28,009 bases of DNA from Deinococcales bacterium (GCA_043778225.1 JAYWGM010000039.1:1-28009), one strand, 5' to 3'; positions 275 through 28,009 are shown, counted from the first letter of the stretch. The notes: generated by a model from the letters alone, not told the origin. Numbers and translations are program-made.

Positions 275-1237
275 TTAAGTGGGGAACTTTTCGCCGAGTA
301 GCTCTTCTGTTTTTGCCCACAACGCTTCTGCAAGCGCTTCGTCGCGGACGTGTGGATGAACACCTATCATTGGCGGATTGCCAGCTTGCCACGGTTGGGC
401 GATATTGCAATTTTCGCAGTAGACACCACCTATACCGTTCAGCATCTGCGATGTGGCGCACCAGACTGTGGTTGCCGCACCTTGCTCAACTGTTTTGAGT
501 AGATCGTTGAGCTTGCCTTCTCTATCCATCCAGCCCATCGCAATTTTTTCTTCGTCAGCCATATAGCGTTGCAGTGGTGTATCGATACCACCGGGGTCTA
601 CCGCAAACGAACGCACACCATGCGGCTGACCTCTTTTGTCTAAAGAAAGTGCAAAAAGTGCATTGGCAGATTTGGCTTGTGCATAAGCCGTCCACTTTTC
701 GTAAGCCCGATTTTCAAAGTTAAGGTCATCAACCTCGAGTCCATTGCCGCTATGGGCAGATGAGGTCAGCGCAACCACTCTGGCACTACTTGCCGCAACT
801 AACAACGGAAATAAACGTGCTGTAAGTTGAAAATGACCGAGATGATTAATCGCCAACTGACTTTCAAAGCCACGTTTATCTCGAGTTAGTGGATTTGCCA
901 TAATCGCGGCATTGTTGATCAGAAAGTTTAGTTTTTTCAGGCGTGATAGCACAGCTTCACTAAACGAATCTATTGAGGCTGGATCACCAAGATCAAGGGT
1001 AAGTATCGTCACCCCTGTAATATCTGCCAGATTCTCCTGCGCTACCTCGAGACGACGAGCGCCAACGATGACATCAGCGCCTGCACCGACCAAAGCACGT
1101 ACCGTTTCGGTTCCGATTCCCGAGTATCCACCCGTGACGACAGCCGTTTTTCCCGTTAAATCTATTCCCTTGACCACATCATTGGCGGTAGAACGATAAC
1201 CAAACAAGGAATTTTCTAAGCGTTGTTGTAAAGCCAT
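275..1237 (-). CDS. Short-chain dehydrogenase/reductase (retinol-DH/WWOX-like)
   Basis: TGGYSGIG, NNA and YAQAK (YxxxK) motifs; RBS AAGGAG upstream. Confidence 0.93.
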   Translation of the reverse strand: MALQQRLENSLFGYRSTANDVVKGIDLTGKTAVVTGGYSGIGTETVRALVGAGADVIVGARRLEVAQENLADITGVTILTLDLGDPASIDSFSEAVLSRLKKLNFLINNAAIMANPLTRDKRGFESQLAINHLGHFQLTARLFPLLVAASSARVVALTSSAHSGNGLEVDDLNFENRAYEKWTAYAQAKSANALFALSLDKRGQPHGVRSFAVDPGGIDTPLQRYMADEEKIAMGWMDREGKLNDLLKTVEQGAATTVWCATSQMLNGIGGVYCENCNIAQPWQAGNPPMIGVHPHVRDEALAEALWAKTEELLGEKFPT

Positions 1238-1357
1238 AAATTTGTACTCCTTTTACTTGTGCCGAGTGAGACTCGGTCTGTGTCAAAGGATAATCTATAG
1301 TTAAATGCTTGTCTTATTCATTTTCAAAGAGCTTGGATACATTTCGCAGATTTGGTA

Positions 1358-2347
1358 TTAACCCACCAAGGCAACTTCTCGAGTTTTAGCCAGCGCCAGT
1401 CGTTGTCCGATATACGGCACATAAACCGAACCCGATAATCCTTGGGCTTGCCAAGCGCGGCTTGCCTCGAGTTGCCAGCGTTTGTCTGACCAGCCAAAGC
1501 CAGTATCGGCTTGGTCTTCGTGACCAGATAAGTGCATGAGATAAGTCTTTTGTGGCTCGAGTTTTTTGGCAATCGCCTTAATTTGACTAAACGAAGCATG
1601 ACTGGCGGGTAAACCTTGGGCATCCATGTGGTAATCCCAAGTGTTGCAGTCTACCAGCAGTAAATCGCAATTTTTGAGGGCGTTAAAGGCTTCTTCTTCT
1701 AAAGTCCTTGGTTGCTCGAGCCAAAGGTTGGTGCTGTCCATATCCCAAAGTAAAGCCGCTTTGAAATTGCTGGTTTGCAGAATAAATCCAGCACAACAAG
1801 ACAGCCGCTCTTCGCTGTGTGGAGCGTGTAAATCTGCGCTTGAATGTGCCAGTGTAACCGGCGTGATTTGTAAATCACTCAGTTGGGTTGCAATCGGCTC
1901 GAGCAGATGACCTTTGGGCAGAAACTCGAGCGAAGTAATGATTTGAAAATCGCGCAGTGCATGGGGTTGCTGCCGCTCGAGCCACGCCGCACTACCTTCG
2001 CGCATCCAAAGGTTGCCTTTGTGGGCTGGTTCGCCCCGACGCTGCCGACTGCGCCGAATGCTGGTGCTGATTCGGGCTAAATCCGCCACATGGTCGCTGT
2101 GCCAGTGGGTTAAGAAGACCCAATCCAAACGCGGTTTGTGCTGTAATTCTGGAATGTTCAGTAAACTGTCGGCAACGCCAGCCCCAGCGTCAAAAAGCCC
2201 ATGAAACCCAAATTGCTGGTTGCTGTAACCCAATAGAGAAACCGAAGTATTGGCGGTACGCTCGGTGCGACGACAGCGTTCGCAGTCACAGCCAAGTTCT
2301 CGTTTCCACGCATTGTCAAAGCCATTGATCACCAGTTCATAGTTCAT
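1358..2347 (-). CDS. MBL-fold metallo-hydrolase, PhnP-like
   Basis: THWHSDH (HxHxDH), N-terminal GCDCERC Zn motif, distal His motifs (HAS, HLSGH). Confidence 0.8.
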   Translation of the reverse strand: MNYELVINGFDNAWKRELGCDCERCRRTERTANTSVSLLGYSNQQFGFHGLFDAGAGVADSLLNIPELQHKPRLDWVFLTHWHSDHVADLARISTSIRRSRQRRGEPAHKGNLWMREGSAAWLERQQPHALRDFQIITSLEFLPKGHLLEPIATQLSDLQITPVTLAHSSADLHAPHSEERLSCCAGFILQTSNFKAALLWDMDSTNLWLEQPRTLEEEAFNALKNCDLLLVDCNTWDYHMDAQGLPASHASFSQIKAIAKKLEPQKTYLMHLSGHEDQADTGFGWSDKRWQLEASRAWQAQGLSGSVYVPYIGQRLALAKTREVALVG

Positions 2348-2451
2348 TTGTACTTGTACCCTAAAGCAACTTGGTCATGGAAAAGTCTGCCCTGAGGCAG
2401 AATTCTTATCCCGAGATAATCCAGCCAGACTCGAGCAAAAAGTCTAAAAGG

Positions 2452-4524
2452 TTATGCCGATTTCTGTAATTGAATGCCATTAATGGATAAGGCATTGACC
2501 GTCACAATCACGGTTGAGGCGCTCATCAACAGGGCTGCCCACTCTGGACGTAATAAAATTCCTAAGGATGGATATAATACCCCAGCCGCGATTGGAATCG
2601 CTAACACATTATAAATGGCTGCCCAAAATAAATTCTGTACAATTTTTTGCCGTACCACTCGAGCAATCTGAATCCCACTGGCAACACTCGAGGGGTCGCT
2701 TTTGACCAGCACCACATCGGCAGTTTCTACAGCCACATCCGTACCCGCACCAATCGCAATCCCAACTTCTGCCATTGCCAGCGCGGGTGCGTCGTTGACT
2801 CCATCGCCAATCATCGCCACTTTGCGCCCCTCGAGTTGCAGGGCTTTGACTTTATCGGCTTTGTCTTGCGGTAAAACCTCGGCAATCACGGTATCTATAC
2901 CAAGTTGCTTGGCGACGGCTTGGGCAGTTCGGGTGTTATCGCCAGTCAGCATCACGGTTTGAATGTTCAGCGCGTGTAGCGCAGCCACGGCATTTTTGGC
3001 AGTTGGGCGAATCACATCGGCTACAGCAATTAGCCCCAAAAGTAGCCCGTCTCGAGCCACATACATCGCCGTTTTACCTTCGCTCGAGAGGCGTTGGCTG
3101 GTTGCTTCAAGGGCTTGAGCGGCAATGTTGTGTTGCTGCATCAAACGCAAGTTACCAATCAGAATAGTTTTTCCTTCGATCATTGCGCTGATGCCAAGCC
3201 CAGCAATCGAATCAAATTTTTCTGGCGCGACCAACTCGAGCTTACGCTTTTTAGCATCGCGCACAATTGCTTCGGCAAGCGGGTGCTGTGAGGACTGGTC
3301 GGCACTGGCAGCCACCCGCAGTAACTCGAGCGGGTCAGTTCCTTGGCTTGGCTCGAGGTCGGTGACGGCGGGTTTACCTTCGGTTAAAGTGCCAGTCTTA
3401 TCAAAAATAACCGTATTGATGCTGGCGGTTGCCTCGAGTGCTGTGGCATTCTTGAACAGCACCCCTTCTTTGGCGGCTCTTCCCACGCCCACTGTAATCG
3501 CGGTTGGGGTTGCCAATGCCAGTGCGTCTGGGCAAGCAATCACTATCGCACTCACCGCCGCCGCCAGCGCAAAAACAACACCTTGAGTGCTAAATAGCAT
3601 CCAAGCGGCAAAGGTCAGGATTCCAGCGCCTAGAGCCACAAAAACAAGGTACTTACCCGCCGTGTCTGCCAATTGCTGGGCAGGAGCTTTACTGGCTTGG
3701 GCATCTTGAACCATCTGGACAATTTTTGCCAAGGCTGTATCTGCACCTACCGCCGTTGCCTTAAATTGAAATGCACCCGATTGATTGACCGTTCCGCCTG
3801 TTACCTTTGCGCCCGATTCTTTTTGTACAGGTATCGGCTCGCCCGAAATCATGCTTTCATCGACATAACTCGAGCCAGATGTGACCGTACCATCCACCGC
3901 CACACGGTCGCCGGGCTTAACGATAATTTCATCACCAACCACCACTTGCTCGAGCGGGATTTGTTGTTCTTGCCCACTTCGCAGCACTCGAGCCGTGGCG
4001 GGGGCAAGTTTAAGCAGCGCTTCTACGGCTTTGCCAGTTGCAAACCTCGAGCGCATCTCGAGCCAATGACCAGCCAAAGAAAAACTGGTCAGCATTGCGG
4101 CGGCTTCAAAAAAGACATCGCCACCCAAAAACACCGTGGCTGCCACCGAATAAATGTACGAAACCAAAATGCCCACGGCAATCAGGGTCATCATCGTCAC
4201 ATCAGCTTTTTTGAGCGAATTCCAAGCGCTCGAGGTAAATGGATATGCACCCCAGAGTACAATCGGTGTGGTCAAAATCAGCCCAAACCATTCCATGCTT
4301 AACCCAAACGGTGGATCAAAGGTAAAACCAATACCCATGCCGATTGGCGAAAACAGCACCACGGGGATGGTCAGCACCAAGCAAACCCAAAAGCGGCGCA
4401 ACATATCGCTAACCATGCTTTTATCATGACCAGCGTGTTGGTTATGATTTGCCTTTGGCGGCATTGCCCCATGACTTGAGTGATTCATGGTAGCAGGTGC
4501 TTCTGGCGAGTGATGTTGCTTCAT
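2452..4524 (-). CDS. copB: P1B-type ATPase, CopB-like, His/Met-rich N-terminus, CPD motif
   Basis: DKTGT, GDGVND, SQHP, YN (TM7), MSAST (TM8), IACPDAL (TM6). Start moved to ATG 4524 (MKQHHS...) to avoid overlap with the upstream gene. Confidence 0.88.
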   Translation of the reverse strand: MKQHHSPEAPATMNHSSHGAMPPKANHNQHAGHDKSMVSDMLRRFWVCLVLTIPVVLFSPIGMGIGFTFDPPFGLSMEWFGLILTTPIVLWGAYPFTSSAWNSLKKADVTMMTLIAVGILVSYIYSVAATVFLGGDVFFEAAAMLTSFSLAGHWLEMRSRFATGKAVEALLKLAPATARVLRSGQEQQIPLEQVVVGDEIIVKPGDRVAVDGTVTSGSSYVDESMISGEPIPVQKESGAKVTGGTVNQSGAFQFKATAVGADTALAKIVQMVQDAQASKAPAQQLADTAGKYLVFVALGAGILTFAAWMLFSTQGVVFALAAAVSAIVIACPDALALATPTAITVGVGRAAKEGVLFKNATALEATASINTVIFDKTGTLTEGKPAVTDLEPSQGTDPLELLRVAASADQSSQHPLAEAIVRDAKKRKLELVAPEKFDSIAGLGISAMIEGKTILIGNLRLMQQHNIAAQALEATSQRLSSEGKTAMYVARDGLLLGLIAVADVIRPTAKNAVAALHALNIQTVMLTGDNTRTAQAVAKQLGIDTVIAEVLPQDKADKVKALQLEGRKVAMIGDGVNDAPALAMAEVGIAIGAGTDVAVETADVVLVKSDPSSVASGIQIARVVRQKIVQNLFWAAIYNVLAIPIAAGVLYPSLGILLRPEWAALLMSASTVIVTVNALSINGIQLQKSA

Positions 4525-4588
4525 ATAATCCGTTTTAAGCCTTATACCTTTGGGTTGGCTGTGCTGAAACTGAATAAGGCTGGTGAAT

Positions 4589-4999
4589 TTAGGCTGGTGG
4601 TGCAAAACTCGAGGCAAGCCGAGTTAATAATTCTTCGCCATGCTCGTACCCGGGTCGTAGATAAATCATGGCAAAGGTTTTCCAGTCTTGCACCGCCGCA
4701 ACTTCTGTGCCGTCCTCGAGTTTGAAATGCGGGTATGCGCCATATTCGATATAACAATTAAATTCTTTTGCCACAGCCTCGAGTCGTATAAGTTTGGCAT
4801 CATCCCAAATAATCGTGTAAGGCAGTGCAAAACAAGGTTTACCACACGAACCACCTAAGCCAATCACCGCTAAGCCAGCATACGTTGGGTACTCGGCTCG
4901 AGCTTGGCTACGCTCGAGAAAAGCGGCTCGGTTTTTCAGTAAGGTCTTGTCGGCAATTTTTTGCGACATCACCCATGCACCAATTGGAACTTTTGCCAT
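4589..4999 (-). CDS. Hypothetical protein with CxxxC motif, between the two Cu ATPases
   Basis: RBS AAGGAG overlapping the copA stop; 136 aa; GGSCGKPC and YPHF motifs. Confidence 0.75.
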   Translation of the reverse strand: MAKVPIGAWVMSQKIADKTLLKNRAAFLERSQARAEYPTYAGLAVIGLGGSCGKPCFALPYTIIWDDAKLIRLEAVAKEFNCYIEYGAYPHFKLEDGTEVAAVQDWKTFAMIYLRPGYEHGEELLTRLASSFAPPA

Positions 5000-5008
5000 A
5001 ATTTCTCC

Positions 5009-7546
5009 TTAGGCTTGTGCGGTCACAAGATTTGATGGTTTGGTTTGAACTGCATTTTGAATTGGTGCTTTGAAACCACGCAAACGTAGCGCATTGCCAA
5101 GTACAAAAACACTCGAGAATCCCATGGCTGCGCCTGCCAGTACGGGGTTCAGCAACCAACCAAAAACTGGATACAACACGCCAGCCGCAACTGGAATTAA
5201 AACCACATTATAGGCAAATGCCCAAAATAAATTAAAGCGGATGTTGCCAATGGTGCTTTTTGATAACGCAATTGCATTTGGCACACCGCGCAAATCGCCA
5301 GACATCAAAATCACATCGGCGGTTTCAATTGCCACATCTGTACCCGTACCAATCGCAATACCAACGTCGGCTTGGGCGAGGGCGGGCGCGTCGTTGATGC
5401 CGTCCCCTACAAATGCCACTTTGGTGTTATTAGTTTGCAATTGCTTTATAGCTGCGGCTTTACCGTCTGGTAGCACTTCGGCAAGCACTTGGCTAATTCC
5501 GAGTTGTTTGGCAATTGCATTGGCGGTGTGCTGATTATCGCCAGTTATCATGGCAACTTGCAGATTCATTTTTTGTAATGCTTCAAGGGCAATTCTCGAG
5601 CCAGCCTTGATTGGGTCGGCTACGGCAATAATTGCAGCAAGCTGACCGTTAATCGCAGCATACAATGGCGATTTGCCTTGGTCGCCAAGCGCAGCAGCTT
5701 GGCTCGAGAAACCAGCCACATCAATCCCAAGTTGGGTCATGTATCGGTCTGCGCCAATTTGTACTTGTACCTTGTCAACTCGAGCCGTCACGCCGTACCC
5801 AGCAATCGCTTCAAAGTCAGAAATTGGCTCGAGGGTTAAACCTTTTTCTTTGGCGGCTTTGACAATACTTTGGGCAACAGGATGTTCGCTTGCGTTTTCG
5901 ACACTGGCAATCAAGGCTAAAAGTTGATTGTCTGGGATTGCGCTCTGGTTGATAAAATCGGTCAGTTCAGGTTGTCCTTTGGTCAGTGTACCCGTTTTAT
6001 CAAGCGCCACAATTTGAACCCCATGCAGTCCTTCCAGTGCCGTACCAGTGCGAAATAACACCCCAAGTTCGGCGGCTTTACCCGTGCCAACCATAATACT
6101 GGTCGGGGTGGCTAATCCCATGGCGCAGGGGCAAGCAATAATTAAGACCGCAATCGCGTTGACAATCGCAAAACTCGAGTTGCCAGCCAGCATCCAGACC
6201 AAAAAAGTCAGTGCCGCAATAACCAGTACAATCGGGGTAAAAACCAGAATCACTTTATCGGCTAAACCCTGAATTGGTGGTTTAGAACCTTGGGCGGTTT
6301 CGACCAGTTTAATAATTTGAGCCAGTACCGTATCTGCCCCAATCGCATTTGCTTTAACCATCAGAGCGCCACTTTTGTTGATGGTACTACCAACCACTTG
6401 GCTGTTCAGTTCTTTTTTGACTGGGACTGGTTCGCCAGTAATCATGCTTTCGTCCACATAACTCGAGCCACTGGTCACAATCCCATCCACTGGGATTTTC
6501 TCGCCGGGACGCACCGAAATTAAATCGCCCAGCAGCACTTCCTCGAGCGGAAGCTCGAATTCAGTTGTACCACGCAGCACCCGCGCAGTTTTGGCTTGTA
6601 AACCAAGCAGGGTTTTCATGGCTTGACTGGTTCTGCCTTTGGCGATGCTTTCGAGGTACTTACCAAGTAAAATCAGGGCAATCACCACACCAGCCGCTTC
6701 AAAATAGACAAAGCGCCCGTTCTCTGGCACAATTCCTGGCACAAAGGTCTCGAGTAGGACCACGGCTGTGCTGTACCAAAAAGCAGCACTTGTACCCAAC
6801 ATTACCAAGGTGTTCATATCGGGGCTGCGCTGCACTAGGGCTTGCCAGCCATGAGTTAGAAAGCGCCTTCCGGGAATAAAGTAAATCGGCACGGCAAGCC
6901 CAAGCATCACCCAATCCCAGAATTTCATTGGTGCAATCTGCTCGAGACTCATCATCGCGGGCATATACAGCATTGGAATCATGGCAAGCAATAAAAGCGG
7001 CACAGCAAAAACGGTGGCAATCGTTAAATCTATTTTTAGGCTTTGAATTTCGGCGGCTCGAGCCAAACTTTCGGCATCAGTGTGGCTCTGTCCAGCTTGC
7101 ACCTCGAGAATATCGTAGCCAGCTTCCCGAATCGCAGCTTTGAATTGTGCAGGGCTGGCGGCGGCTGGCAAATACTGCACCATAGCCCGTTCGGTGGCTA
7201 AATTGACATTGGCATCGAGTACCCCGTCTACTTTTTTAAGCGCCCGTTCGACCCGTCCGACACAAGCCGCACAGGTCATGCCCGTTACGCCTAACTCGAG
7301 GCGGCTGGTACGGGCTTCATAACCAATTTCTTTGACTTTCTCGAGGACGGCTGCCACAGAAACTTGATTTGGATTGTAAGCAATGGTGGCGCGTTCAGTC
7401 GCCAGATTAACGCTGGTTTGGGTCACACCCTCGAGTTTTTGAAGTCCTCGTTCGACCCGTCCGACACAAGCGGCGCAAGTCATGCCGCCAATGCCTAATT
7501 CGAGGACTTTGCTGCTTTGCAAAATTTGGTTTGTGTTGGCTGTCAT
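5009..7546 (-). CDS. copA: Cu(I)-translocating P1B-1 ATPase
   Basis: Two GMTCAAC HMA domains, CPC, DKTGT, SEHP, YN, MGFSS. Start at ATG 7546 with RBS AAGGAG. Confidence 0.96.
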
Positions 7547-7560
7547 CTTGAACTCCTTCA

Positions 7561-7576
7561 ATCCCCTTGGGGGGAT
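7561..7576. promoter_or_regulatory. CsoR operator (copA side)
   Basis: ATCCCC-TTGG-GGGGAT, the C-tract/G-tract pseudo-palindrome typical of CsoR sites, downstream of the copA -10. Confidence 0.75.
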
Positions 7577-7588
7577 ATATTAAGGGAA

Positions 7589-7617
7589 AGCATAAACCCA
7601 AAGGTAAAATCGGTCAA
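7589..7617 (-). promoter_or_regulatory. Sigma70-type promoter of copA
   Basis: TTGACC-17 bp-TATGCT on the minus strand. Confidence 0.7.
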
Positions 7618-7654
7618 GTACCGCAAAATACAGATTTTTTGTTGCTAAAAGGAC

Positions 7655-7683
7655 TTGAAAAGTTGGCTTCTCTCGAGTATTCT
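7655..7683 (+). promoter_or_regulatory. Sigma70-type promoter of copZ-csoR
   Basis: TTGAAA-17 bp-TATTCT; the spacer ends in CTCGAG. Confidence 0.7.
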
Positions 7684-7688
7684 GTCTT

Positions 7689-7704
7689 TACCCCATAGGG
7701 GGAT
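7689..7704. promoter_or_regulatory. CsoR operator (copZ side)
   Basis: TACCCC-ATAG-GGGGAT between the -10 and the copZ RBS. Confidence 0.78.
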
Positions 7705-7716
7705 AAAGGAGCAATC

Positions 7717-7923
7717 ATGACCATTGAATTAAAAGTATCAGGAATGACCTGCGGACACTGCCAAACAGCCGTTCAAAAAGCCCTGCAAAGTATCGAAGGG
7801 GTCAGTGCCGTAGAAGTAAATTTAAGCGCAGGGACAGCCAATGTCCAAGGCAACAATATCAAAACCGAGAACCTGATTGCTGCCATTATAGACGAAGGGT
7901 ACGGCGCAAGCCTGTCCGCCTAA
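7717..7923 (+). CDS. copZ: Copper chaperone
   Basis: 68 aa HMA domain with GMTCGHC; RBS AAGGAG. Confidence 0.95.
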   Translation: MTIELKVSGMTCGHCQTAVQKALQSIEGVSAVEVNLSAGTANVQGNNIKTENLIAAIIDEGYGASLSA

Positions 7924-7924
7924 A

Positions 7925-8209
7925 ATGGAACACGAAGCCTTGTGTATGCCGCTCGAGTCGCGCAAACGTGCCATTCGGCGGTTGGCGATTGCTAAAGGGC
8001 ATTTAGAGAGTATCCAACGAATGCTCGAGAACCCAGATGTCTACTGTGTGGATGTGCTGCGCCAAATTAAAGCCGTTCAGGGCGCACTGCAAGGTGCGGG
8101 CGAAGTGGTGCTGCGTGGGCATCTCGAGGCGCACGTGGCAACGGCGGCGGCTCGGGGCGATGCTTCTGAGATGGTGGATGAGGTCATGGAAGCCATACGA
8201 CTCCATTGA
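7925..8209 (+). CDS. csoR: Copper-sensing repressor, Thermus-type C-H-H ligand set
   Basis: RL..AKGHL..I.RML, YCVDVLRQIKAV, LRGHLEAHV; directly after copZ. Confidence 0.92.
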   Translation: MEHEALCMPLESRKRAIRRLAIAKGHLESIQRMLENPDVYCVDVLRQIKAVQGALQGAGEVVLRGHLEAHVATAAARGDASEMVDEVMEAIRLH

Positions 8210-8336
8210 CCAGATTGGTAATTCTGGCTAGAGACCTGACCAAATAAAAATGAGTTCTACATCAGCACGAAATTAACATAAAGACAAGTGCTAGACCAGA
8301 AAACCGATGCTTACATTGACAGTCCGTTCCTGCCTT

Positions 8337-9597: not shown

Positions 9598-10586
9598 GAT
9601 TTCTCGATTTTTCGGGTCAGTCTCAGAATTGCTGTTTGTATTTCGCTCGAGCGAGGGTCTTCTTTGTAGGCAGCTTGCCATGCAGCCAAGGCTTTTTTGT
9701 ACTGCCCAACTTGCTCGAGGGCGCGGGCATAGTAGGTGTTGATTTCTCGGCTGTTGGGATAGCCCTTTAAGGCACTTGCTGCCACTCGAATCGTTTGCTT
9801 ATACATTCCAGCCCGATTCCAAGCATCGAAGGCATCGTGTTGATACCAGTATTGCTTAGCCGCCAAACCCAGTTTATGGGCTTGGCTAAAGGCATTGGCG
9901 GATGATTTCAGCACACCTTGATACAAATGTGCCTGTCCAAGACCCCACCATGCAGAAGAATCGCTGGGCGCACTTTTTAGGCGCAATCTCGAGTTCTGCT
10001 CGAGTTGCTTTAAGTTAAGTTGTCTGTTCCAGTTCTTGCCAAGAATTTCTTGTAACGCAGCCCCTTGCTCTGGGCGGTAGGCAATTAAATACTCGCCATT
10101 GTACGCCTTAGAAACAATCGCAAATTCGCGGTTTGTCAGGCGAAACTTCGCCCCAAACATCGAATCGCCAAAAAGAATCGAACTTGCATCAAAACCATAC
10201 GCCACCCGAAAATGTCCAATGTCGCTGTTGATTTTTTGTTGCTGGTGCAAAATAACAAAGAAATTAGCTTTGACCAAGCGACGCACCAAATCTGGAGTTG
10301 CCAACCAGCGCCGAATGGTTTGCAGTCCATTGGCTTGTAAATAACTGGCTAATTCTGGCGTGGTCACATTGCGATCTGGATAACTGCCTTTAAGCGCCGC
10401 CGCCGCCTCGGCTTGTGAAACCTTGATGCCAGCCAGCGACAGTGCCATTTTAGCGGTCACAGGTCCACAATTGTTTAAGCGTTGAAATTCAAACCCAAGC
10501 ACTGCGGGAAGCACATACTTTGATTGGGCGTTAGCCACACCAAAACCAATGCCTAAAATGAGAATGCCAAATTTGATTACTTTCAT
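9594..10586 (-). CDS. Exported C39-like cysteine peptidase with C-terminal TPR repeats
   Basis: Signal peptide; QRLNNCGP (Cys), GHFRV (His) and GDS (Asp) motifs; TPR-like helices (AWWGLGQAHLYQG, YYARALEQVG). Confidence 0.8.
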   Translation of the reverse strand: MKVIKFGILILGIGFGVANAQSKYVLPAVLGFEFQRLNNCGPVTAKMALSLAGIKVSQAEAAAALKGSYPDRNVTTPELASYLQANGLQTIRRWLATPDLVRRLVKANFFVILHQQQKINSDIGHFRVAYGFDASSILFGDSMFGAKFRLTNREFAIVSKAYNGEYLIAYRPEQGAALQEILGKNWNRQLNLKQLEQNSRLRLKSAPSDSSAWWGLGQAHLYQGVLKSSANAFSQAHKLGLAAKQYWYQHDAFDAWNRAGMYKQTIRVAASALKGYPNSREINTYYARALEQVGQYKKALAAWQAAYKEDPRSSEIQTAILRLTRKIEKS

Positions 10587-10648
10587 GCCAGACCTCGATA
10601 TGATGAATTTATTTATTTTGCCTCAAACATTTGAGGAATTTTTATAAC

Positions 10649-10677
10649 AAAAGCCTCTTGATGCTCGAGAGGCTTTT
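10649..10677. terminator. Intrinsic terminator downstream of the DUF305 gene (bidirectional form)
   Basis: AAAAGCCTCTTGA-TGC-TCGAGAGGCTTTT. Confidence 0.75.
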
Positions 10678-10686
10678 AACTCGAGC

Positions 10687-11304
10687 CTAGATATTCTTGG
10701 TTTTTAACCAGCCTTCGTACTGTTTAATTTCTTTGCTTTGGTCGTTGACCACAGCCTGACCAAATTTCTTGAGTTCTGGGCGCAGGGCGCGTTTGGTCGC
10801 ATCTTTACCCATGGCTACGGCGTGTTGATGGTGTGGAATCATGCCCTCGAGAAAACTGCGGTCTATGGGCATTGCCATACCAGCCATTGGCTGCATACCA
10901 CCCATCGAAGCGTCCATCATTGGTTTCATATCGGCTTTCATCAGTGCCATTTGCTTTGGGTCTGGCGTGGCTTTGTACCAATTTTTAAGCCATGTTTTCA
11001 TTTGCAGGATTTCTTTGTCTTGGGCGTTGATGATTTTTTGTGCGGCGGCTTTGACCTCTTTATCCAAACAATTCTTGACGCACATTTGCGACATTTCGAC
11101 TGCCCCACGGTGATGCTCAATCATCTGTGAAAGCCATGCGATGTCATAGCTTTTGCCACTCAGTTTAGCAAGGGCTCTCGCGCCAGAATCGCCCATGTTG
11201 CCCATCTTCATATCGCCCATGTTCATCTGTGCCACGGCTGGAACAGTCAGTGCGGCTAAACCAAGTGTGCCAATAAAACCCAATGCCAATAAAAACTTTT
11301 TCAT
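10687..11304 (-). CDS. DUF305 (CopM-like) exported Met/His-rich copper-binding protein
   Basis: Signal peptide; two MIxHH..AV.M repeats with Q..EI; very Met-rich. Confidence 0.92.
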   Translation of the reverse strand: MKKFLLALGFIGTLGLAALTVPAVAQMNMGDMKMGNMGDSGARALAKLSGKSYDIAWLSQMIEHHRGAVEMSQMCVKNCLDKEVKAAAQKIINAQDKEILQMKTWLKNWYKATPDPKQMALMKADMKPMMDASMGGMQPMAGMAMPIDRSFLEGMIPHHQHAVAMGKDATKRALRPELKKFGQAVVNDQSKEIKQYEGWLKTKNI

Positions 11305-11338
11305 ATGTATGACCTCAAGCCATAAGCTATCAAGCCAG

Positions 11339-11411
11339 TGTTGAGTTTTGATAAAGCCTGTTTATGACCTGTGGTACAAGGTTTTCTAGCCTATGTGAAT
11401 TTTGTGTAAAG
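11339..11411. promoter_or_regulatory. Candidate OmpR-type tandem binding boxes between the divergent DUF305 and response regulator genes
   Basis: Two similar 18-mers, TGTTGAGTTTTGATAAAG (11339-11356) and TGTGAATTTTGTGTAAAG (11394-11411), with half-sites 11 bp apart. Confidence 0.4.
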
Positions 11412-11437
11412 CACTCTTTGATGGTTTACAATGCCCT

Positions 11438-13236: not shown

Positions 13237-13347
13237 GCCCAAAGTGCAACCGCAATAAGGATTAAAATTCTTTGCAGCAATCAGTCTTCACGGTGCTACG
13301 CCGTTTAGCGCTGTCCTCGAGTTTATTTTTGGTGCAAAATACGGTCT

Positions 13348-14678: not shown

Positions 14679-14787
14679 GACCGATTATATCTGGACTTGG
14701 GGCTGCTTTTCAAAGATTTATTCTGTAGCTCGAGCCAGTCTAACCTAACGAACGTTTGTAAATAAACTCGAGTTTAATTTGTGGCTC

Positions 14788-14816
14788 TTTGCAAAACCAA
14801 GTCAGCCCCGTATAGT
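14788..14816 (+). promoter_or_regulatory. Sigma70-type promoter of the amino-acid ABC operon
   Basis: TTGCAA-16 bp-TATAGT. Confidence 0.55.
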
Positions 14817-14889
14817 GTGCGCTGACTGCATCAAAACGAGTACATTTGCATATCAAGTGTCTCGAGACGGCGTAGTTACGGAGGTAGGG

Positions 14890-15933: not shown

Positions 15934-15944
15934 AGACTTACCCT

Positions 15945-15982
15945 CGAGCGCCGACACCTTAAACTGTCGGCGTTCTCGTTTT
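15945..15982 (+). terminator. Hairpin after the SBP gene (partial terminator or mRNA stabiliser)
   Basis: CGCCGACA-CCTTAAAC-TGTCGGCG followed by TTCTCGTTTT. Confidence 0.6.
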
Positions 15983-16061
15983 AGGAAGGTAAAAGTAGAA
16001 ATCTCATTTTTAACCTTTTAGCCCTTTTACCTTTTAACCTTGATTCTTGAGGAGGTTTCTT

Positions 16062-17255
16062 TTGTCAGAGCTTATTGTCAATTCTGAACAGACAGCCGTG
16101 CCGTTTTATCGTGATGTCAAAAAATTAGCCGTGATTGCCCAAGTGGTTTTTTTGCTGTTGGTGGTGGCGGCTGTTCTGGTTTTAATCAACAATGTCAATG
16201 TCGGCTTAAAAAAACAAGACTTGAGTTTTGGCTTTGATTTTTTGACCCAGACAGCTGGGTTTCAAGTTGCCGAAGGCACAGCCTTTGGTCTGCCTTACGA
16301 CTCGAGCAGCGATAATATTATTAAAGTGATTCTGGTTGGGTTGTACAACACCCTCCGCATTGCGATTATTGGCATGGTCTCAGCGACTTTGCTTGGGGTG
16401 CTGGTTGGCATTGGGCGGCTCTCGAGCAACTGGTTGGTCAGCCGTGTGGCACTGGTTTATGTTGAAATTTTACGCAATACCCCGCTTTTGGTGCAACTGG
16501 TGGTTTGGTACTTTATTGTGGTGCTGCAATTGCCACCAATTTCAGAGGTACAACCCGTGGCAGGTGTCTATCTTTCTAATTCAGGGCTGGCATTGCCATG
16601 GATGGTACAAAAACCCGATGCGATCAATTTCTTTCCGTTTACGATTCTGGCAGTCGTGATTGGCTTGGCGGTCTTTACTTTTTTTGTGCAACAGCGCAAT
16701 AAAAGCGGTAAACCCGTGCCGGCTGGGCAATTTGGGCTTGCCACATGGGTGCTGGTGCTGCTGCTGAGTTTTTTTGCCCTCGGGCAACCGCTCGAGTATG
16801 GTGTGCCAATTCGCGGTAACTTTGGAGTCAACGGCGGACTAACCATCTCGCCAGAATTCACGGCTTTGCTGGTTGGCTTGGTTGTGTATACCAGTTCATT
16901 TATTGCTGAAATCACTCGAGCAGGTATTCAGAGCGTCCATAAAGGGCAATGGGAAGCGGCTCGAGCTTTGGGGTTGGGCTACTCCGAAACCCTGCAACTG
17001 ATTATCCTGCCACAAGCCTTGCGGGTGATGATTCCGCCGCTTGGCAATCAATACCTCAATTTAACCAAAAACTCGAGCCTAGCCGTGGCAATTGGTTACT
17101 CGGATGTGCTAAACGTGCTGAATACCTCTGGCAACCAAAGCGGACAGAATCTGCAAACGATGGTCATCGCGGGTGGTATTTATTTGGTCTTATCCTTGAC
17201 CATTGCCACGATTGTCAACACCTACAACCGCGCCACCAAACTCAAAACGAGGTAA
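16062..17255 (+). CDS. aapQ: Amino-acid ABC permease
   Basis: RNTPLLVQL, EAA loop (GQWEAARALG), YLNLTKNSSLA. TTG start after GAGGAGG. Confidence 0.92.
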   Translation: MSELIVNSEQTAVPFYRDVKKLAVIAQVVFLLLVVAAVLVLINNVNVGLKKQDLSFGFDFLTQTAGFQVAEGTAFGLPYDSSSDNIIKVILVGLYNTLRIAIIGMVSATLLGVLVGIGRLSSNWLVSRVALVYVEILRNTPLLVQLVVWYFIVVLQLPPISEVQPVAGVYLSNSGLALPWMVQKPDAINFFPFTILAVVIGLAVFTFFVQQRNKSGKPVPAGQFGLATWVLVLLLSFFALGQPLEYGVPIRGNFGVNGGLTISPEFTALLVGLVVYTSSFIAEITRAGIQSVHKGQWEAARALGLGYSETLQLIILPQALRVMIPPLGNQYLNLTKNSSLAVAIGYSDVLNVLNTSGNQSGQNLQTMVIAGGIYLVLSLTIATIVNTYNRATKLKTR

Positions 17256-17258
17256 GCC

Positions 17259-18431
17259 ATGCAAATCACATCCAAAAATCCTGCCAGAGCGCCAGCTTGG
17301 CAAATCTGGGCAAAAGAAAATCTTTTCTCGAGTCCAATCAACAGTGTTTTGACGGTTCTCTCGAGCTTACTGGTTATTTGGGTGGTCTCGAGCTTACTTG
17401 GCTGGGCATTGACCGAAGCTAAGTGGAACGTTATTCCAGCGAACTTTAGAATTTTAATGACGGGTTCATTTCCAACCGAGCAGCTTTGGCGTACTTGGAC
17501 AGCCTTAATTGTGGTTTGTTTGGCTTCTGGTCTGCATTGGGGTTCGCTGGCAAAAGGCGCAAAATTACCCATCTGGACTTATGTTTTTGGGGCAGCGATT
17601 ATTCTTTTTACAGCCATTACCCAAGTCGGACACCCGAGTGGCATTCTTGTACCCGTGGCGGTGCTGGCGGTCTTTGCGGGTTATTTTGTCGGACAAATCG
17701 CTATTCCAAGCCGCATCATGAACATTGCTTGGGTGGTTATTTTCTTTGCCACGGTGCTGCTTTTTACGATCGATTTTGGCACTGGCGCGGTGCAGACCAA
17801 AGAATGGGGTGGCTTACTTTTAACCTTAATGCTGAGCATTGTTGGCATTGTGGCGAGCTTCCCACTTGGCATTGCTTTGGCAATCGGGCGCAGCAGCAAC
17901 TACCCAATCATCAGCGCCATCTGTACCGTTTTTATTGAAGTGGTGCGCGGTACGCCGCTTGTGGTGGTGTTTTTTATTGCCCAGTTATTTGTGCCGCTGC
18001 TTTTGGGCGGTGCAAACATCGACCCAGTGGCTCGAGCCATGGTTGGTATCACGATTTTTAGCGCGGCGTATCTAGCCGAAAATGTGCGCGGTGGCTTGCA
18101 AAGTATCCCACCGGGGCAAGTCGAGGCGGCTCGAGCCGTGGGTCTAACCGGTACACAAACACTCCTTTTGATTGTCCTGCCACAAGCCTTAAAAGCCGTG
18201 CTACCCGCTTTGGTTGGGCAGTTTATTGGCTTATTCAAAGACACCAGCCTTGTCTATATTATTGGCTTAAAAGAACTGGCGGGAATTTCGGACACCATCC
18301 GCAGCAACCCCGATTTTGTTGGCACAGCCAAAGAACTTTACTTTACAATCAGTATTATCTACTTTATTTTTAGCTATGCCATGAGCAGCGGCGCACGCAA
18401 CCTCGAGAAGACATTAAACACCAACAGATAG
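17259..18431 (+). CDS. aapM: Amino-acid ABC permease
   Basis: WGGLLLTL, RGTPL, AYLAENVRGGLQ and FKDTSL motifs. Confidence 0.92.
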   Translation: MQITSKNPARAPAWQIWAKENLFSSPINSVLTVLSSLLVIWVVSSLLGWALTEAKWNVIPANFRILMTGSFPTEQLWRTWTALIVVCLASGLHWGSLAKGAKLPIWTYVFGAAIILFTAITQVGHPSGILVPVAVLAVFAGYFVGQIAIPSRIMNIAWVVIFFATVLLFTIDFGTGAVQTKEWGGLLLTLMLSIVGIVASFPLGIALAIGRSSNYPIISAICTVFIEVVRGTPLVVVFFIAQLFVPLLLGGANIDPVARAMVGITIFSAAYLAENVRGGLQSIPPGQVEAARAVGLTGTQTLLLIVLPQALKAVLPALVGQFIGLFKDTSLVYIIGLKELAGISDTIRSNPDFVGTAKELYFTISIIYFIFSYAMSSGARNLEKTLNTNR

Positions 18432-18507
18432 GTAAAAAGTAAAAAAGGTAAAACTTGCCCTTAACATTTAACCTTTTGCCCTTTTCACCCTCTCTTAAAG
18501 GAGACCC

Positions 18508-19275
18508 ATGACCCATCCAGTAAAAGACCTGTCCAACGCCCCTGTGGTCATTGCCGCCAATAATGTCAACAAGTATTACGGGCAGTTTCATGCCTTAAAA
18601 GATGTCAATCTCGAGGTCAAACGCGGCGAGGTGGTGGTCGTGATTGGACCTTCGGGCAGTGGAAAAAGCACCTTTATTCGCTGTATTAACCGGCTCGAGG
18701 AACACCAAACAGGTAAAATTACGGTGCAGGGCATCGAGTTAAGCAACGATGTCCGCAACATAGATGCGATTCGCCGCGATGTCGGCATGGTTTTTCAGAG
18801 CTTTAATTTATTTCCGCATTTAAGTGTGCTGCAAAACATTATTTTAGCGCCAATGCGGGTTAAAAAAATCGAGAAAAGCCAAGCCGAAAGTATTGGACGG
18901 CAACTGCTCGAGCGGGTTGGCATTCCCGAGCAAGCCGATAAATTTCCGGGGCAGTTAAGCGGCGGTCAGCAGCAGCGTGTGGCAATTGCTCGGGCTTTAG
19001 CGATGCAGCCCAAAATTATGTTGTTTGATGAACCGACCAGCGCCCTGGACCCCGAAATGATTAAAGAAGTGCTGGATGTGATGAAAGAACTTGCCCGCAG
19101 TGGTATGACGATGATGTGTGTGACCCACGAAATGGGTTTTGCTCGAGAAGTCGCTGATAGGATTGTCTTTTTTGATAAAGGGCAAGTGGTTGAAGAAAGC
19201 ACCCCAGACGATTTTTATCACAACCCAAAAACTGACCGCGCCAAGTTGTTTTTAAGCCAGATTTTGGGGCATTAG
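18508..19275 (+). CDS. aapP: Amino-acid ABC ATP-binding protein
   Basis: [28 protein letters not shown] and THEMGFA motifs. Confidence 0.95.
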
Positions 19276-19561: not shown

Positions 19562-19869
19562 TGTACTTCTTGGTTCTTGATGACAAAGTACAGGACAATT
19601 TATTGCAGATTAGCCAAGATTTAAGTGAGGCTCGAGACCAAAAATTTCTACAGACACTAAAAAACTGCCTCGATTTAATTCTCGAACATCCGCTTGCCAT
19701 GCCGAGTATTGGCGTTGACAATGCGTTTCCCGACTTATACCGAATTAACTTAATCACTCTCGTTTACCCAAAAAACGGTCAAACTGTCGTTCTTGCTCAC
19801 AAGACAGCACCTTGCGGTCTGTTCGCGCTTCAAACGTTAATTCGGTTTCGTTGTCACTCCTTTTCTTGA
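19561..19869 (+). CDS. RelE/ParE-like toxin, C-terminus possibly degenerate
   Basis: N-half is ParE-like (VQDNL..I...L...F...L...LDLI.EHP). The C-terminal part is atypical and runs into a repeat region. Confidence 0.5.
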   Translation: MYFLVLDDKVQDNLLQISQDLSEARDQKFLQTLKNCLDLILEHPLAMPSIGVDNAFPDLYRINLITLVYPKNGQTVVLAHKTAPCGLFALQTLIRFRCHSFS

Positions 19870-19932
19870 CCCTAAACACGCACCTGTCTTGACCACAAAC
19901 GCGCACCTGTCTTGACCCTAAAGATGCACCTT
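19864..19932. repeat. 3 x 23-bp imperfect tandem repeat
   Basis: TCTTGACCCTAAACACGCACCTG / TCTTGACCACAAACGCGCACCTG / TCTTGACCCTAAAGATGCACCTT. Confidence 0.9.
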
Positions 19933-19969
19933 ACGGGCTGGGTCGCTGACGGGCGTGGTCGCATAGTCG

Positions 19970-20000
19970 GTTAATCAGTCAAAATACGCGACTGATTAAC
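19970..20000. repeat. Perfect 11-bp inverted repeat with 9-bp spacer
   Basis: GTTAATCAGTC-AAAATACGC-GACTGATTAAC. Confidence 0.85.
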
Positions 20001-20032
20001 ACAATTTGGTATAACACCATTTGGGTAGGGCT

Positions 20033-20070
20033 AAAAACTTAACGCCCTACTTATCTCAAAGTAAGGCGTT
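20033..20070 (-). terminator. Intrinsic terminator of the Ugp-like ABC operon
   Basis: Minus strand AACGCCTTACTT-TGAGAT-AAGTAGGGCGTT (one U-G pair) followed by AAGTTTTT. Confidence 0.7.
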
Positions 20071-20088
20071 TGCAGTTCAAGAAATCGT

Positions 20089-20114
20089 CTCGAGCGGGGT
20101 ATCAGCCGCTCGAG
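20089..20114. repeat. Hairpin closed by two CTCGAG sites
   Basis: CTCGAGCGG-GGTATCAG-CCGCTCGAG, 10 bp after the SBP stop. Confidence 0.8.
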
Positions 20115-20124
20115 TCTCAAGCAA

Positions 20125-25187: not shown

Positions 25188-25199
25188 TATACTCGAGCA

Positions 25200-26057: not shown

Positions 26058-26109
26058 GACAAGTATCAGCCGACAACCCCATGAGACCATCAGCCGACAA
26101 TTCCATGAC
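26038..26109. repeat. 3 x ~23-bp direct repeat spanning the GT stop and the ugd leader
   Basis: ATCAGCCGACAA(T/C)(C/T)CCATGA starting at 26038, 26065 and 26089. Confidence 0.9.
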
Positions 26110-26133
26110 CAAAATTGTATTGACTGGAGCTTT

Positions 26134-27498
26134 ATGCAAACTTTAACCGTAATTGGCGCTGGGTATGTTGGACTCTCGACGGCGGTCGCCATGGCAATGG
26201 CTGGGCATCGGGTCTACTTATTTGAACGCAACAGCCAACGTCGCACCGATTTACAGCAGGGCATTCTGCCATTTAGCGAACCCAATCTCGAGAATGCGCT
26301 GCTTTTACAAAAAGAGCGAATTGTCATCACCGACGATTTAGCGACGGCTGTTGATGCCTCAAGCATCATCATGTTGGCAGTTGGCACACCGCCCACACCT
26401 GCCCAAGGGGTTGACCTGACCCAAGTTTTTGATGCCGTACATCAGCTTGCGCCGCACCTTGACCAGACGGCTCGAGTGATTGTCGTTAAGTCCACTGTAC
26501 CCGTTGGCACAAGCCAAGAAATCCAGAAATTACTAGAAGAAATCGCCCCAAATGCCATTTTTGCTTTAGCCAGCAACCCCGAATTTCTGCGCCAAGGCAG
26601 GGCGCTGCGCGATGCGGTTTTTCCAGACCGAATTGTAATTGGCACAAGCCAAAATTGGGCGCTCGAGGTGTTGCGGGCTTTGTATGCGCCGCTCGAGCAT
26701 GGCAATTTGGCTGTGCCACCCGAACTCGAGCCATACCGACCCGATAAGCCGATTCCGATACTCGAGGTCAGCCTTGCCAGTGCCGAACTTGCCAAATACG
26801 CCGCCAATGCCTTTTTAGCGATGAAAATCAGTTTTATCAACGAAATCGCTAATGTCTGCGACAGCACCAACGCCGACATAGACCAAATTGTGGCGGTCTT
26901 AGCCCAAGACAGCCGTATTGGTAAGGATTTTTTACGCCCCGGACTGGGTTATGGCGGTTCGTGTTTTCCCAAAGACACCCGTGCGTTAAGTCACTTGGCT
27001 TCGCGCCGTGGCTATGAATTTCGCTTGCTCAGGGCAGTCATCGAAGTCAATAGCGAGCAGCGTTACCGCGCCCTCGAGCGACTTGAGCGGGTTTTAGCTG
27101 GTTATCGCGGTAAACGGATTGCGGTTTTGGGGCTGAGTTTTAAGCCAGAGACCGACGATTTACGCGAATCGGTGGGCATAGACATAGCCTTAGAACTGAT
27201 GGCTCGAGGTGCGATTGTGACAGCCCACGACCCGATGATGCCTAAGGCTGCACCAGTCCAAATCCAAATAAAAGCCAGACTCGAGGATTGCCTTGCAGGG
27301 GTAGATGCTGCCATTCTCGTGACGGAGTGGCTGGATTACCAAGAAGCCGATTGGACTCAGCTTGGGCAAAGTATGAAGCAAAAAATCATGCTTGATGGGC
27401 GTAACGCCCTTGATGCCCAAGCCATGCGACTGGCTGGGTTTACTTACTTGGCAATTGGGCGCAATCAGCACCAAATTAAGCGCAGGGTCACAATCTGA
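26134..27498 (+). CDS. ugd: UDP-glucose/GDP-mannose 6-dehydrogenase
   Basis: GAGYVG, AVGTP, KSTVPVGT, NPEFL, GYGGSCFPKD, FKP.TDD.RES and DGRN. Start at ATG 26134 with GGAG. Confidence 0.95.
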   Translation: MQTLTVIGAGYVGLSTAVAMAMAGHRVYLFERNSQRRTDLQQGILPFSEPNLENALLLQKERIVITDDLATAVDASSIIMLAVGTPPTPAQGVDLTQVFDAVHQLAPHLDQTARVIVVKSTVPVGTSQEIQKLLEEIAPNAIFALASNPEFLRQGRALRDAVFPDRIVIGTSQNWALEVLRALYAPLEHGNLAVPPELEPYRPDKPIPILEVSLASAELAKYAANAFLAMKISFINEIANVCDSTNADIDQIVAVLAQDSRIGKDFLRPGLGYGGSCFPKDTRALSHLASRRGYEFRLLRAVIEVNSEQRYRALERLERVLAGYRGKRIAVLGLSFKPETDDLRESVGIDIALELMARGAIVTAHDPMMPKAAPVQIQIKARLEDCLAGVDAAILVTEWLDYQEADWTQLGQSMKQKIMLDGRNALDAQAMRLAGFTYLAIGRNQHQIKRRVTI

Positions 27499-28009
27499 AA
27501 CGGGGTCACAAAAACCCGAACTGTCTTGCCGTGAACTTCAAGCGGGGTTTGGTTTAGCTCGAGTAAATTACAAATAAAAGCTGCCTCGAGTTCAAACATA
27601 CATTCGAGGTCTACCCAGCCGCGTGAACGGCTGCACTCGTAAAAGCGCACAATCATGCCGTTGTCGTCGTCGGCACGTTTAATCGTCTCGAGAATAATGT
27701 TGCTGTTGATGCTCGAGAGCAAAGAAGCCACTGGGCGCGTTGGTGTTTTGTTGCCAGAGACAGCAATGATTGGGTCGTTCAGTTCATAGGCGGCGCTGCT
27801 GACTTCCCAACTCGAGGGAAAAGTGCTTGGCACAAGCGCATACGAAAAAACCTGCTGCCCTTGGTCGGCTTGGGGGTCTGGCGAAACTGGCGAGCGCAAT
27901 AACGACAAACGCATCACATTATCGTGAATGTCGTGTCCATACTTGCAGTCGTTGATTAAACCCAAACCATAGCCATTTTCCGAAAGCATCACCCATTTCT
28001 GAGCGCAGG
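27465..28009 (-). CDS. GH38 alpha-mannosidase, C-terminal part (5' end outside window)
   Basis: CAQKWV.LSE.GYG..LINDCKYG, RLSLLRSP..PD..ADQG, ETIKRA.D, RFYE and PFQIVT; frame open to the window edge. Confidence 0.9.
   Translation of the reverse strand, partial: CAQKWVMLSENGYGLGLINDCKYGHDIHDNVMRLSLLRSPVSPDPQADQGQQVFSYALVPSTFPSSWEVSSAAYELNDPIIAVSGNKTPTRPVASLLSSINSNIILETIKRADDDNGMIVRFYECSRSRGWVDLECMFELEAAFICNLLELNQTPLEVHGKTVRVFVTPFQIVTLRLIWC

Follow-up and report, generated by a model that had tools for sequence, protein, structure and literature searches.

CTCGAG is a true highly iterated palindrome (HIP) in a family of uncultured Deinococcales. We analysed a 28,009-nucleotide stretch of DNA from a Deinococcales bacterium (positions 1-28009 of JAYWGM010000039.1, assembly GCA_043778225.1; hereafter the window), the genome that holds it (G000) and its relatives across the order, and show that a DNA-level, directional pressure creates the bare hexamer and retains it, to the same extent inside genes and between them. 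The word behaves like a HIP because it is hyper-abundant, occurs in all reading frames and in spacers, is independent of its flanks and is retained beyond codon usage, as a first-pass annotation of the window had proposed by likening it to the cyanobacterial word HIP1. Its excess is genome-wide, covers coding and non-coding DNA alike and does not follow from codon usage, and its copies are better conserved than those of control words.

Abundance, codon context and spacing of CTCGAG

The window contains exactly 171 copies of CTCGAG, spread over positions 734-27816 from the first (734-739) to the last (27811-27816), with a spacing of one per 164 bp (no strand is assigned to these copies or to the other non-genic features given below). 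This count is ~25-fold above the uniform expectation (28009/4096) and ~56-fold above that of dinucleotide-preserving shuffles (n = 100; mean 3.03, standard deviation 1.69, maximum 7), none of which reached 171. Genes were called crudely, as open reading frames of at least 100 amino acids picked greedily, and every one of the 24 genes obtained in this way carried the word, with 150 copies in gene bodies distributed over all three frames (88 CTC-GAG, encoding Leu-Glu, 32 xCT-CGA-Gxx and 30 xxC-TCG-AGx). Outside the called genes we counted 22 copies, and 10 of the 16 spacers of at least 20 bp held one or more. GC content is even along the window (47-52%), and its gene content is ordinary (P-type ATPases, ABC transporters, a two-component pair and sugar enzymes), with no DNA-related gene found among the window genes. 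These results bear out most of what the first-pass annotation had read from the sequence, namely some 170 copies at ~25-fold over uniform composition, their presence in nearly every gene, in three frames and in most intergenic regions, and the lack of a candidate gene in the window; its guess of a Deinococcota lineage agrees with the Deinococcales label of the assembly and with the two closest named relatives, each a "Deinococcales bacterium".

The same pattern extends over the whole G000 assembly (4.03 Mb in 107 contigs of up to 154 kb, GC 48.7%, 89% complete), which holds 24,877 copies, about one per 162 bp and 26.7 times the composition expectation. CTCGAG is the top 6-mer of this genome, three times as frequent as the next, while the next palindromic hexamer has an observed/expected ratio of 2.48. 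All 107 contigs are rich in the word, mostly at one copy per 150-180 bp, with none sparser than one per 300 bp and a sole density outlier at one per 94 bp, such that the excess is confined neither to one contig nor to codons. Density is equal in genes (one per 163 bp) and in 1,834 short spacers (one per 162 bp), although the spacers have a GC content of 43.5%, and there it amounts to 32 times the composition expectation. Coding copies fall into the three frames as 13,098, 4,477 and 4,638, with 59% in the Leu-Glu frame, and 68% of all TCGA tetramers in the genome sit within CTCGAG. No flanking position of 24,873 genomic sites exceeded 0.033 bits, and the unit is therefore the bare hexamer, as the first-pass annotation had held; the conserved sequence past the core that marks dispersed repeats of the REP (repetitive extragenic palindromic) or MITE (miniature inverted-repeat transposable element) type was not seen.

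An abundant word could in principle be a by-product of composition, of codon usage or of frequent Leu-Glu pairs, with no pressure on the word itself, and the majority share of the Leu-Glu frame among coding copies, as well as the fact that CTC and GAG are common codons in GC-rich relatives, which explains part of the milder excess in those genomes, speak for such an account. We therefore permuted synonymous codons within each gene, a procedure that leaves protein, dipeptides and codon usage unchanged, and obtained 2,371±40 copies in G000 compared with 22,263 observed, a 9.4-fold excess; for the window, 200 such shuffles gave 13.2±3.3 copies (maximum 22) compared with the 150 in gene bodies. 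The excess thus persists under the codon- and dipeptide-preserving shuffle that the first-pass annotation had named as decisive. Moreover, 13,128 of the 18,973 Leu-Glu pairs of G000 are spelled CTCGAG, yet outside the word CTC makes up just 9% of Leu codons and GAG ~24% of Glu codons. Where a codon completes the word it is favoured strongly over its synonyms, with odds ratios of 40 for GAG over GAA, 22 for CTC over CTT, 14 for CGA over CGG, 12 for TCG over TCA and 46-333 for most other synonymous alternatives; if these odds are read as a mutation-fixation balance, they would correspond to a scaled advantage of ~2.5-3.7 per synonymous choice. Together with the spacers, which are just as dense, these results refute the by-product explanation and leave it practically no probability.

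An artefact of assembly, binning or adapters fares no better; nothing was found in its favour, and we give it next to no credence. The excess is common to 19 family assemblies, including 18 besides that of the window, and to two named Deinococcales bins from other records (observed/expected 21-22), and the copies lie in frame within conserved genes. In addition, independently assembled contigs from two public runs match positions 10001-18720 of the window exactly over 8.7 kb, their long pieces differing from it at 0 letters. The two runs belong to one study, one of them may be the source sample of the window, and the comparison was made on contigs; as far as contigs can show, an artefact, which the first-pass annotation had listed among the outcomes that would overturn its claim, is refuted.

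We further examined how the copies of G000 are spaced relative to one another. Compared with its plateau, the hazard of meeting the next CTCGAG is reduced to 0.14-0.21 at 8-9 bp, ~0.33 at 10-13 bp and ~0.5 at 14-20 bp (0.14-0.64 over the whole range of 8-20 bp). At 7 bp it is 0.87, on the basis of 123 pairs, each in a unique context and 101 of them genic, and at 6 bp it is 0, a distance at which a pair would create the avoided word GAGCTC. Some of the 7-bp pairs in spacers sit within longer hairpin-like palindromes. Long gaps aside, spacing is slightly more even than random (coefficient of variation 0.914 vs 0.962), with 3,195 gaps longer than 300 bp compared with 3,699 expected. At the far end of the distribution, 19 gaps longer than 1.5 kb were found where 1.6 are expected, all of them with a GC content (31-47%) below the 48.7% of the genome; examples are C44:57430-63067, C41:55253-59553 and C40:7694-11074, and these 19 CTCGAG-free gaps are probably recently imported DNA. 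The long gap on C40 carries methyltransferase genes, and another of the 19 begins within a D12-class methyltransferase gene (C101:10426-11115).

Words related to CTCGAG show a graded spectrum. One-letter neighbours that differ by a transition have observed/expected ratios of 1.16-1.41 and those that differ by a transversion 0.15-0.95, a spectrum that looks like the decay products of a large CTCGAG pool, and variants that change an outer letter, leaving TCGA intact, outnumber the rest (6,184 vs 3,503 and 4,106). The one flank pair that stands out is the 8-letter palindrome CCTCGAGG, with 243 copies compared with the ~810 worked out from single-flank frequencies; each of the other 15 flank pairs occurs 1,117-2,203 times. 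Other palindromes are shunned in G000, where 31 of the 64 palindromic hexamers have an observed/expected ratio of at most 0.05 (3 copies of GGCGCC and 1 each of GGGCCC, AGGCCT and GACGTC), there are 131 GGCC in 4 Mb, and the ratio for GATC is 0.13. Such avoidance suggests prolonged exposure to numerous restriction systems, and the genome carries some 20 DNA methyltransferase genes.

Conservation, distribution among relatives and effect on proteins

To follow individual sites between species, we aligned 20 kb of the window to five genomes of the same genus, at 75-83% DNA identity. CTCGAG was conserved at 41/52, 52/77, 54/72, 35/48 and 41/81 sites (0.51-0.79), compared with 0.36, 0.35, 0.35, 0.21 and 0.26 for control 6-mers in the same genomes, such that retention between species is two to three times higher for CTCGAG than for other 6-mers. 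Where the amino acid is unchanged, the codon is kept far more often inside the word (CTC 0.77, GAG 0.82, CGA 0.75, TCG 0.88) than outside it (0.43, 0.43, 0.46 and 0.55, respectively), a test that is the one applied to HIP1 by Xu et al. (PMC5861425). In a comparison with an outgroup, 15 of 75 ancestral CTCGAG sites had changed, compared with 44% of other 6-mers. Turnover within the genus could be polarised into gains (for example, 11 in G000) and losses (4); with an outgroup, 1 of 6 ancestral one-letter variants had become CTCGAG, six precursors being too few for a rate. The context-dependent choice of codons, these polarised gains and losses and the extra Leu-Glu pairs described below agree with the earlier proposal that a system in this lineage creates or keeps the site.

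An excess of CTCGAG was found in all 19 genomes of the family, which hold 12,028-35,442 copies each at one per 150-235 bp; the sample spans 5 genera, with genomes 57-94% complete and one, G033, in a single contig. The two closest named relatives, metagenome-assembled genomes found through the locus of a window protein, have the observed/expected ratios of 21-22 given above, compared with a median of 0.55 and a maximum of 4.9 at 78 loci of the same gene from other phyla. We then surveyed 121 genomes of the order, and corrected the excess in seven relatives by synonymous permutation of fetched stretches. The excess over shuffle was 5.7 in G033, from another genus of the same family (80 kb sampled), 3.3 in G116 (120 kb) and 2.5 in G067 (240 kb) of family f5, 2.7 in G056 and 2.4 in G013 of family f2 (40 kb each), 1.6 in G015 of family f4 (80 kb) and 0.02 in G052 of family f3 (80 kb). 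Except in G052, CTCGAG was the top palindromic hexamer in every one of these seven relatives, with non-coding observed/expected ratios of 3.3-9.5 and odds ratios of 2.5-9.4 for CTC before GAG.

Family f3 avoids the word, with 40-942 copies per genome in the 26 genomes sampled, and the 80 kb of G052 contained 1 coding copy where synonymous shuffling leads one to expect 43. The test across lineages that the first-pass annotation had named therefore returns a series, from the strong excess of all family members through a weaker one in three other families to avoidance in f3. This gradation, seen over 121 genomes, indicates that the pressure on CTCGAG arose long ago and reaches widely across the order; it peaks in a single family of uncultured Deinococcales and is inverted in f3.

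The pressure also alters proteins, roughly doubling their Leu-Glu pairs. In G000, Leu-Glu occurs at 2.33 times the expectation from residue frequencies, compared with 0.97 for Glu-Leu and 0.95 for Leu-Asp. In 30 best-hit protein pairs between G000 and the CTCGAG-avoiding G052 (11,412 aligned residues), we counted 178 Leu-Glu pairs in G000 and 91 in G052, of which 45/178 and 45/91, respectively, were kept in the partner; the usual partners of a G000 Leu-Glu in G052 were Leu-Gly, Leu-Arg, Leu-Asp, Leu-Ala and Val-Glu. The same asymmetry was obtained with G015 (67/232 against 67/165). Loss of Leu-Glu in the avoiding genome, whose own observed/expected ratio is 0.80 in a small sample, may account for part of the difference seen with G052.

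Several local features of the window illustrate these patterns. A P-type ATPase gene on the minus strand (2452-4617), a typical housekeeping gene, carries 16 copies in frames 7/4/5, and includes a pair with starts 11 bp apart (4046-4062), a distance at which pairs are rare genome-wide (hazard ~0.3 of plateau). A paralogous P-type ATPase gene adjoins it (5009-7561), and G003, of the same genus, has two copies ~90% identical to the gene at 2452-4617. The non-genic stretch that follows (7562-8336, outside called genes) holds 4 copies. The spacer at 19758-20124 has two copies, the first at 20089-20094, and its CTCGAG-free part (19758-20088) belongs to a multi-copy dispersed repeat: positions 19730-20020 consist of modules that lack the word, with 25-47 matches per module in G000 and dozens of matches in each of the five same-genus genomes, and a contig depth of 430-1,200 compared with 15-31 nearby.

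Candidate readers of the word and competing explanations

The explanation that we place first, though tentatively, is that CTCGAG would be the recognition site of a resident system, its copies being spread by a drive linked to DNA uptake or recombination. The word would be read by a resident DNA-recognising system, which in cultured relatives would be an apparently nuclease-less CTCGm6AG methyltransferase derived from XhoI-type restriction-modification. DNA of kin bearing CTCGAG, perhaps methylated, would be preferentially taken up, spared or recombined; by an alternative route, heteroduplexes between chromosome copies would be resolved towards CTCGAG. Each new copy would then have a fixation advantage and each loss a disadvantage, which is the model now proposed for HIP1.

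This drive is ranked first because relatives methylate exactly this word, because competence genes are kept in the family (ComEC in 18 of 19 genomes, a secretin in 17 of 19) and because HIP1, when methylated, increases transformation and has itself been suggested to be a watermark for uptake. The relatives are members of Meiothermus and Marinithermus, genera that we take to belong to the same order as the CTCGAG-rich family. Tables S3 and S4 of Blow et al. 2016 (PMC4752239) report active CTCGm6AG methylation and name no cognate nuclease, with 94.6% of sites methylated in Marinithermus hydrothermalis, 94.1% in Meiothermus chliarophilus and 99.5% in M. ruber; for M. silvanus these tables list no CTCGAG methylation. 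The corresponding enzymes, M.Mru1279II, M.Mch9957IV and M.Mhy14884I, have CTCGAG as their target with no nuclease listed there, and one of the three is annotated as Eco57I family (PMC4752239). A suggestive arrangement was seen in G025, where a 597-aa frame with Eco57I and TaqI_C domains is followed within ~260 bp by a XhoI-family nuclease gene broken by stop codons (G025:C1:1095131-1096226, locus L276); the locus resembles a XhoI-type system that is losing its nuclease, and suggests that orphaned XhoI-type systems occur.

A number of results weigh against this explanation. We found no methyltransferase ortholog or class common to all CTCGAG carriers, in a set where most genomes are incomplete bins (57-94%), such that gene absences are soft, and where the specificity of a methyltransferase is not readable from sequence. 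Each candidate class fell short as a shared agent: the Eco57I+TaqI_C gene of G000 occurs in 3 of 19 family genomes; TaqI_C domains occur in 6 of 19 (the single-contig G033 is not among them) and in 38 of the 121 surveyed from the order, a distribution that does not follow CTCGAG density; no C5 enzyme was found in G010, and the C5 enzymes of six genomes are not orthologous; no beta-class N4/N6 enzyme was found in G033; and D12-class enzymes, present in 18 of 19 genomes, form two conserved clusters that are missing from G000. In genus g13, genomes without the ~600-aa Eco57I+TaqI_C class are as rich in CTCGAG as the others, and in genus g9 all 16 of 16 genomes have a TaqI_C gene and no CTCGAG excess. 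The positive evidence of methylation comes from cultured relatives in print, outside the CTCGAG-rich family. ComEC and secretin genes also occur in Thermus and Deinococcus control genomes, in which we know of no such over-represented word, so that competence genes do not discriminate. Finally, a per-site drive predicts no repulsion between neighbouring copies; the depletion of pairs at 8-20 bp, together with the slightly even spacing, fits a functional or footprint model better.

The wider survey of enzymes is as follows. The methyltransferase genes of G000 comprise five full C5, four or five beta-class N4/N6, three D12-class and about ten gamma-class genes, three of the last being HsdM. The C5 and beta-class genes of six genomes pair only within or between single genera, and N6_Mtase genes, found in 19 of 19 family genomes, are heterogeneous in their members; Eco57I/N6_Mtase genes of ~500 aa are either of HsdM type or 23-41% identical, and neither group qualified as a shared agent. 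The two D12 clusters have internal identities of 55-92% and 72-98%, and tblastn searches of G000 returned no hit for one and paralogues at 24-26% for the other. A 293-aa protein with a weak D12-class match is 72-98% identical over three family genera (loci L228-L234, in G033, G011, G050, G055, G068, G073 and G004), and tblastn gave no hit in G000. Genes that combine Eco57I with a TaqI-like specificity domain also occur in milder-excess genomes of the order; the G000 gene of this architecture (650 aa) is 20-21% identical to those of G019 and G037, a level at which no CTCGAG specificity can be drawn from similarity.

Nucleases offered no better candidate. None of the 19 family genomes, G000 included, gave a match to the XhoI nuclease family, and CTCGAG is enriched, not avoided, which is not the pattern of a resident restriction-modification target. 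In the order as a whole, the XhoI-family model matched 6 of 121 genomes, 5 of them among the 23 of family f4; it matched 0 of 26 genomes of f3, and the nuclease was rejected as the cause of avoidance there. No match to the Vsr family was found in G000, at its 89% completeness, and CTTGAG/CTCAAG are not depleted (observed/expected 1.41), so very-short-patch conversion was set aside.

A broader form of the drive, which we regard as possible but doubtful, would make CTCGAG a "watermark" of kin: bearing a probable N6-methyl mark, it would label the DNA of the clade and be read by the competence or recombination machinery. The hosts would be naturally transformable bacteria with multi-copy genomes, in which a self-reinforcing drive would have saturated the family to one site per 160 bp, rewriting proteins on the way; the drive would act at lower strength in Meiothermus-like relatives, and the sister family would purge CTCGAG in defence.

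Two explanations dispense with uptake. In one, which we consider unlikely though worth keeping in view, the site itself would be under direct selection: an abundant DNA-binding or DNA-organising protein would need CTCGAG at short, regular intervals, for nucleoid packing, as a Chi-like start of recombination or for repair, and density would be set by this function and not by drive. Equal density in genes and spacers despite their different constraint and GC content, the slightly even spacing with its deficit of gaps longer than 300 bp, and the conservation of sites all favour such a role, as does the depletion of close pairs, strongest at 8-9 bp, which fits diminishing returns or a protein footprint; for HIP1, a role in chromosome structure was argued by Xu et al. 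2018 (PMC5861425). However, we know of no candidate protein, a simple footprint leaves the undepleted 7-bp pairs unexplained, and density differs at least 40-fold among families that share basic chromosome biology, one of which avoids the word. A Chi-type hotspot is an asymmetric, replication-oriented word, whereas CTCGAG is its own reverse complement and therefore cannot carry the orientation that Chi needs.

The other, to which we assign a lower probability still, is a ratchet of methylation-directed mismatch repair with no role for uptake, as in the HIP model of Elhai: a methyltransferase would mark CTCGAG or TCGA, and biased repair would convert near-cognates to the word and revert its decays. 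Elhai 2015 (PMC4390886) proposes this for HIP1 and for alternate HIPs, each with a matching methyltransferase, and the predominance of outer-letter variants in G000 mirrors the outer-letter bias described by that author. The methylation of CTCGm6AG in relatives likewise favours it. Against the ratchet stand the lack of a methyltransferase common to the carriers, the lack of a Vsr match in G000 and the neighbour spectrum, in which no single word is drained and the transition neighbours are the most abundant, as plain decay gives. The strand choice that the model borrows from E. coli is of the MutH type, which is not known in this phylum, and this too counts against it. For the family, a link to a methyltransferase or to a Vsr-like nuclease, whose co-occurrence the first-pass annotation had proposed to check, was not established: no Vsr match was found in G000 and no methyltransferase common to the carriers, and no one-letter neighbour is drained.

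CTCGAG among known iterated words

HIPs have been a puzzle for thirty years and were so far known from cyanobacteria alone; a second case, in another phylum, with a different word and at higher density, shows the phenomenon to be general. Within the order, the strength of the pressure forms a natural dose series that runs from very strong in one family through weaker in three to inverted in one, and cultured relatives with published CTCGAG methylation open hypotheses of uptake, recombination and repair to experiment. If the watermark were true, HIPs, far from being peculiar to cyanobacteria, would be a device that competent bacteria in general have evolved convergently. In carrier genomes the word has practical consequences as well: it flags imported DNA, it skews codon and dipeptide statistics, and XhoI would cut carrier DNA to pieces of ~160 bp. 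What our analysis adds is the graded, order-wide series, the systematic failure to find a methyltransferase or nuclease common to the carriers, the spectrum of one-letter neighbours, the rules of spacing and the confirmation of CTCGAG methylation in published tables.

No published account of CTCGAG hyper-abundance in this phylum was found in the literature, in a search that had most subscription journals outside its reach. The main text of PMC4752239, when searched for CTCGAG, contains nothing on its abundance, PMC8112702 names CTCGAG just as a Halorubrum m5C motif, and Elhai 2015 (PMC4390886) is a survey of cyanobacteria only, with CTCGAG absent from its text.

Several other classes of over-represented word invite comparison. 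Like CTCGAG, the uptake signal sequences (USS) of Pasteurellaceae and the DNA uptake sequences (DUS) of Neisseriaceae are over-represented, also inside genes; they are thought to spread by uptake bias and recombination, shaping protein sequences as they do so. USS and DUS are non-palindromic words of 9-12 letters that occur about once per kb; the CTCGAG family has competence machinery in common with them, but its word has 6 letters and recurs every 160 bp. Very-short-patch repair at CCWGG in E. coli produces a few-fold bias in words and drains specific neighbours. It resembles the present case in that counts of related words are skewed, and differs from it in that no Vsr was found in G000 and no neighbour of CTCGAG is drained.

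The closest parallel is HIP1 (GCGATCGC) of cyanobacteria. Both are short, GC-rich palindromes that are hyper-abundant in genes and spacers, independent of their flanks, kept beyond codon usage and scarce in imported DNA, and the hosts of both appear to be naturally competent lineages. Both lineages are probably polyploid. HIP1 has 8 letters and CTCGAG 6, and CTCGAG is denser, at one per 160 bp compared with at most one per 350 nt for HIP1 (PMC5861425); high HIP1 abundance, according to the same source, is not seen outside cyanobacteria (Xu et al. 2018), and CTCGAG belongs to another phylum. HIP1 goes with two widely conserved orphan methyltransferases (Elhai 2015, PMC4390886), whereas for the CTCGAG carriers we found no shared one. 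Periodic distribution at 10-90 kb has been described as a further HIP feature (Elhai 2015; Xu et al. 2018). Methylated HIP1 lifts natural transformation up to more than 100-fold (bioRxiv 2024.09.10.611283), and HIP1 has been proposed as a DNA-uptake "watermark" (PMC13756078).

Within cyanobacteria, too, another palindrome can take the HIP role. The alternate HIPs described there, GGCGCC in Calothrix PCC 7103, GCsGC and rCCGGy, include in GGCGCC a hexamer, as CTCGAG is, and each occurs in single strains together with a matching methyltransferase (PMC4390886). Unlike these, CTCGAG pervades a whole family of 19 species and is graded across an order.

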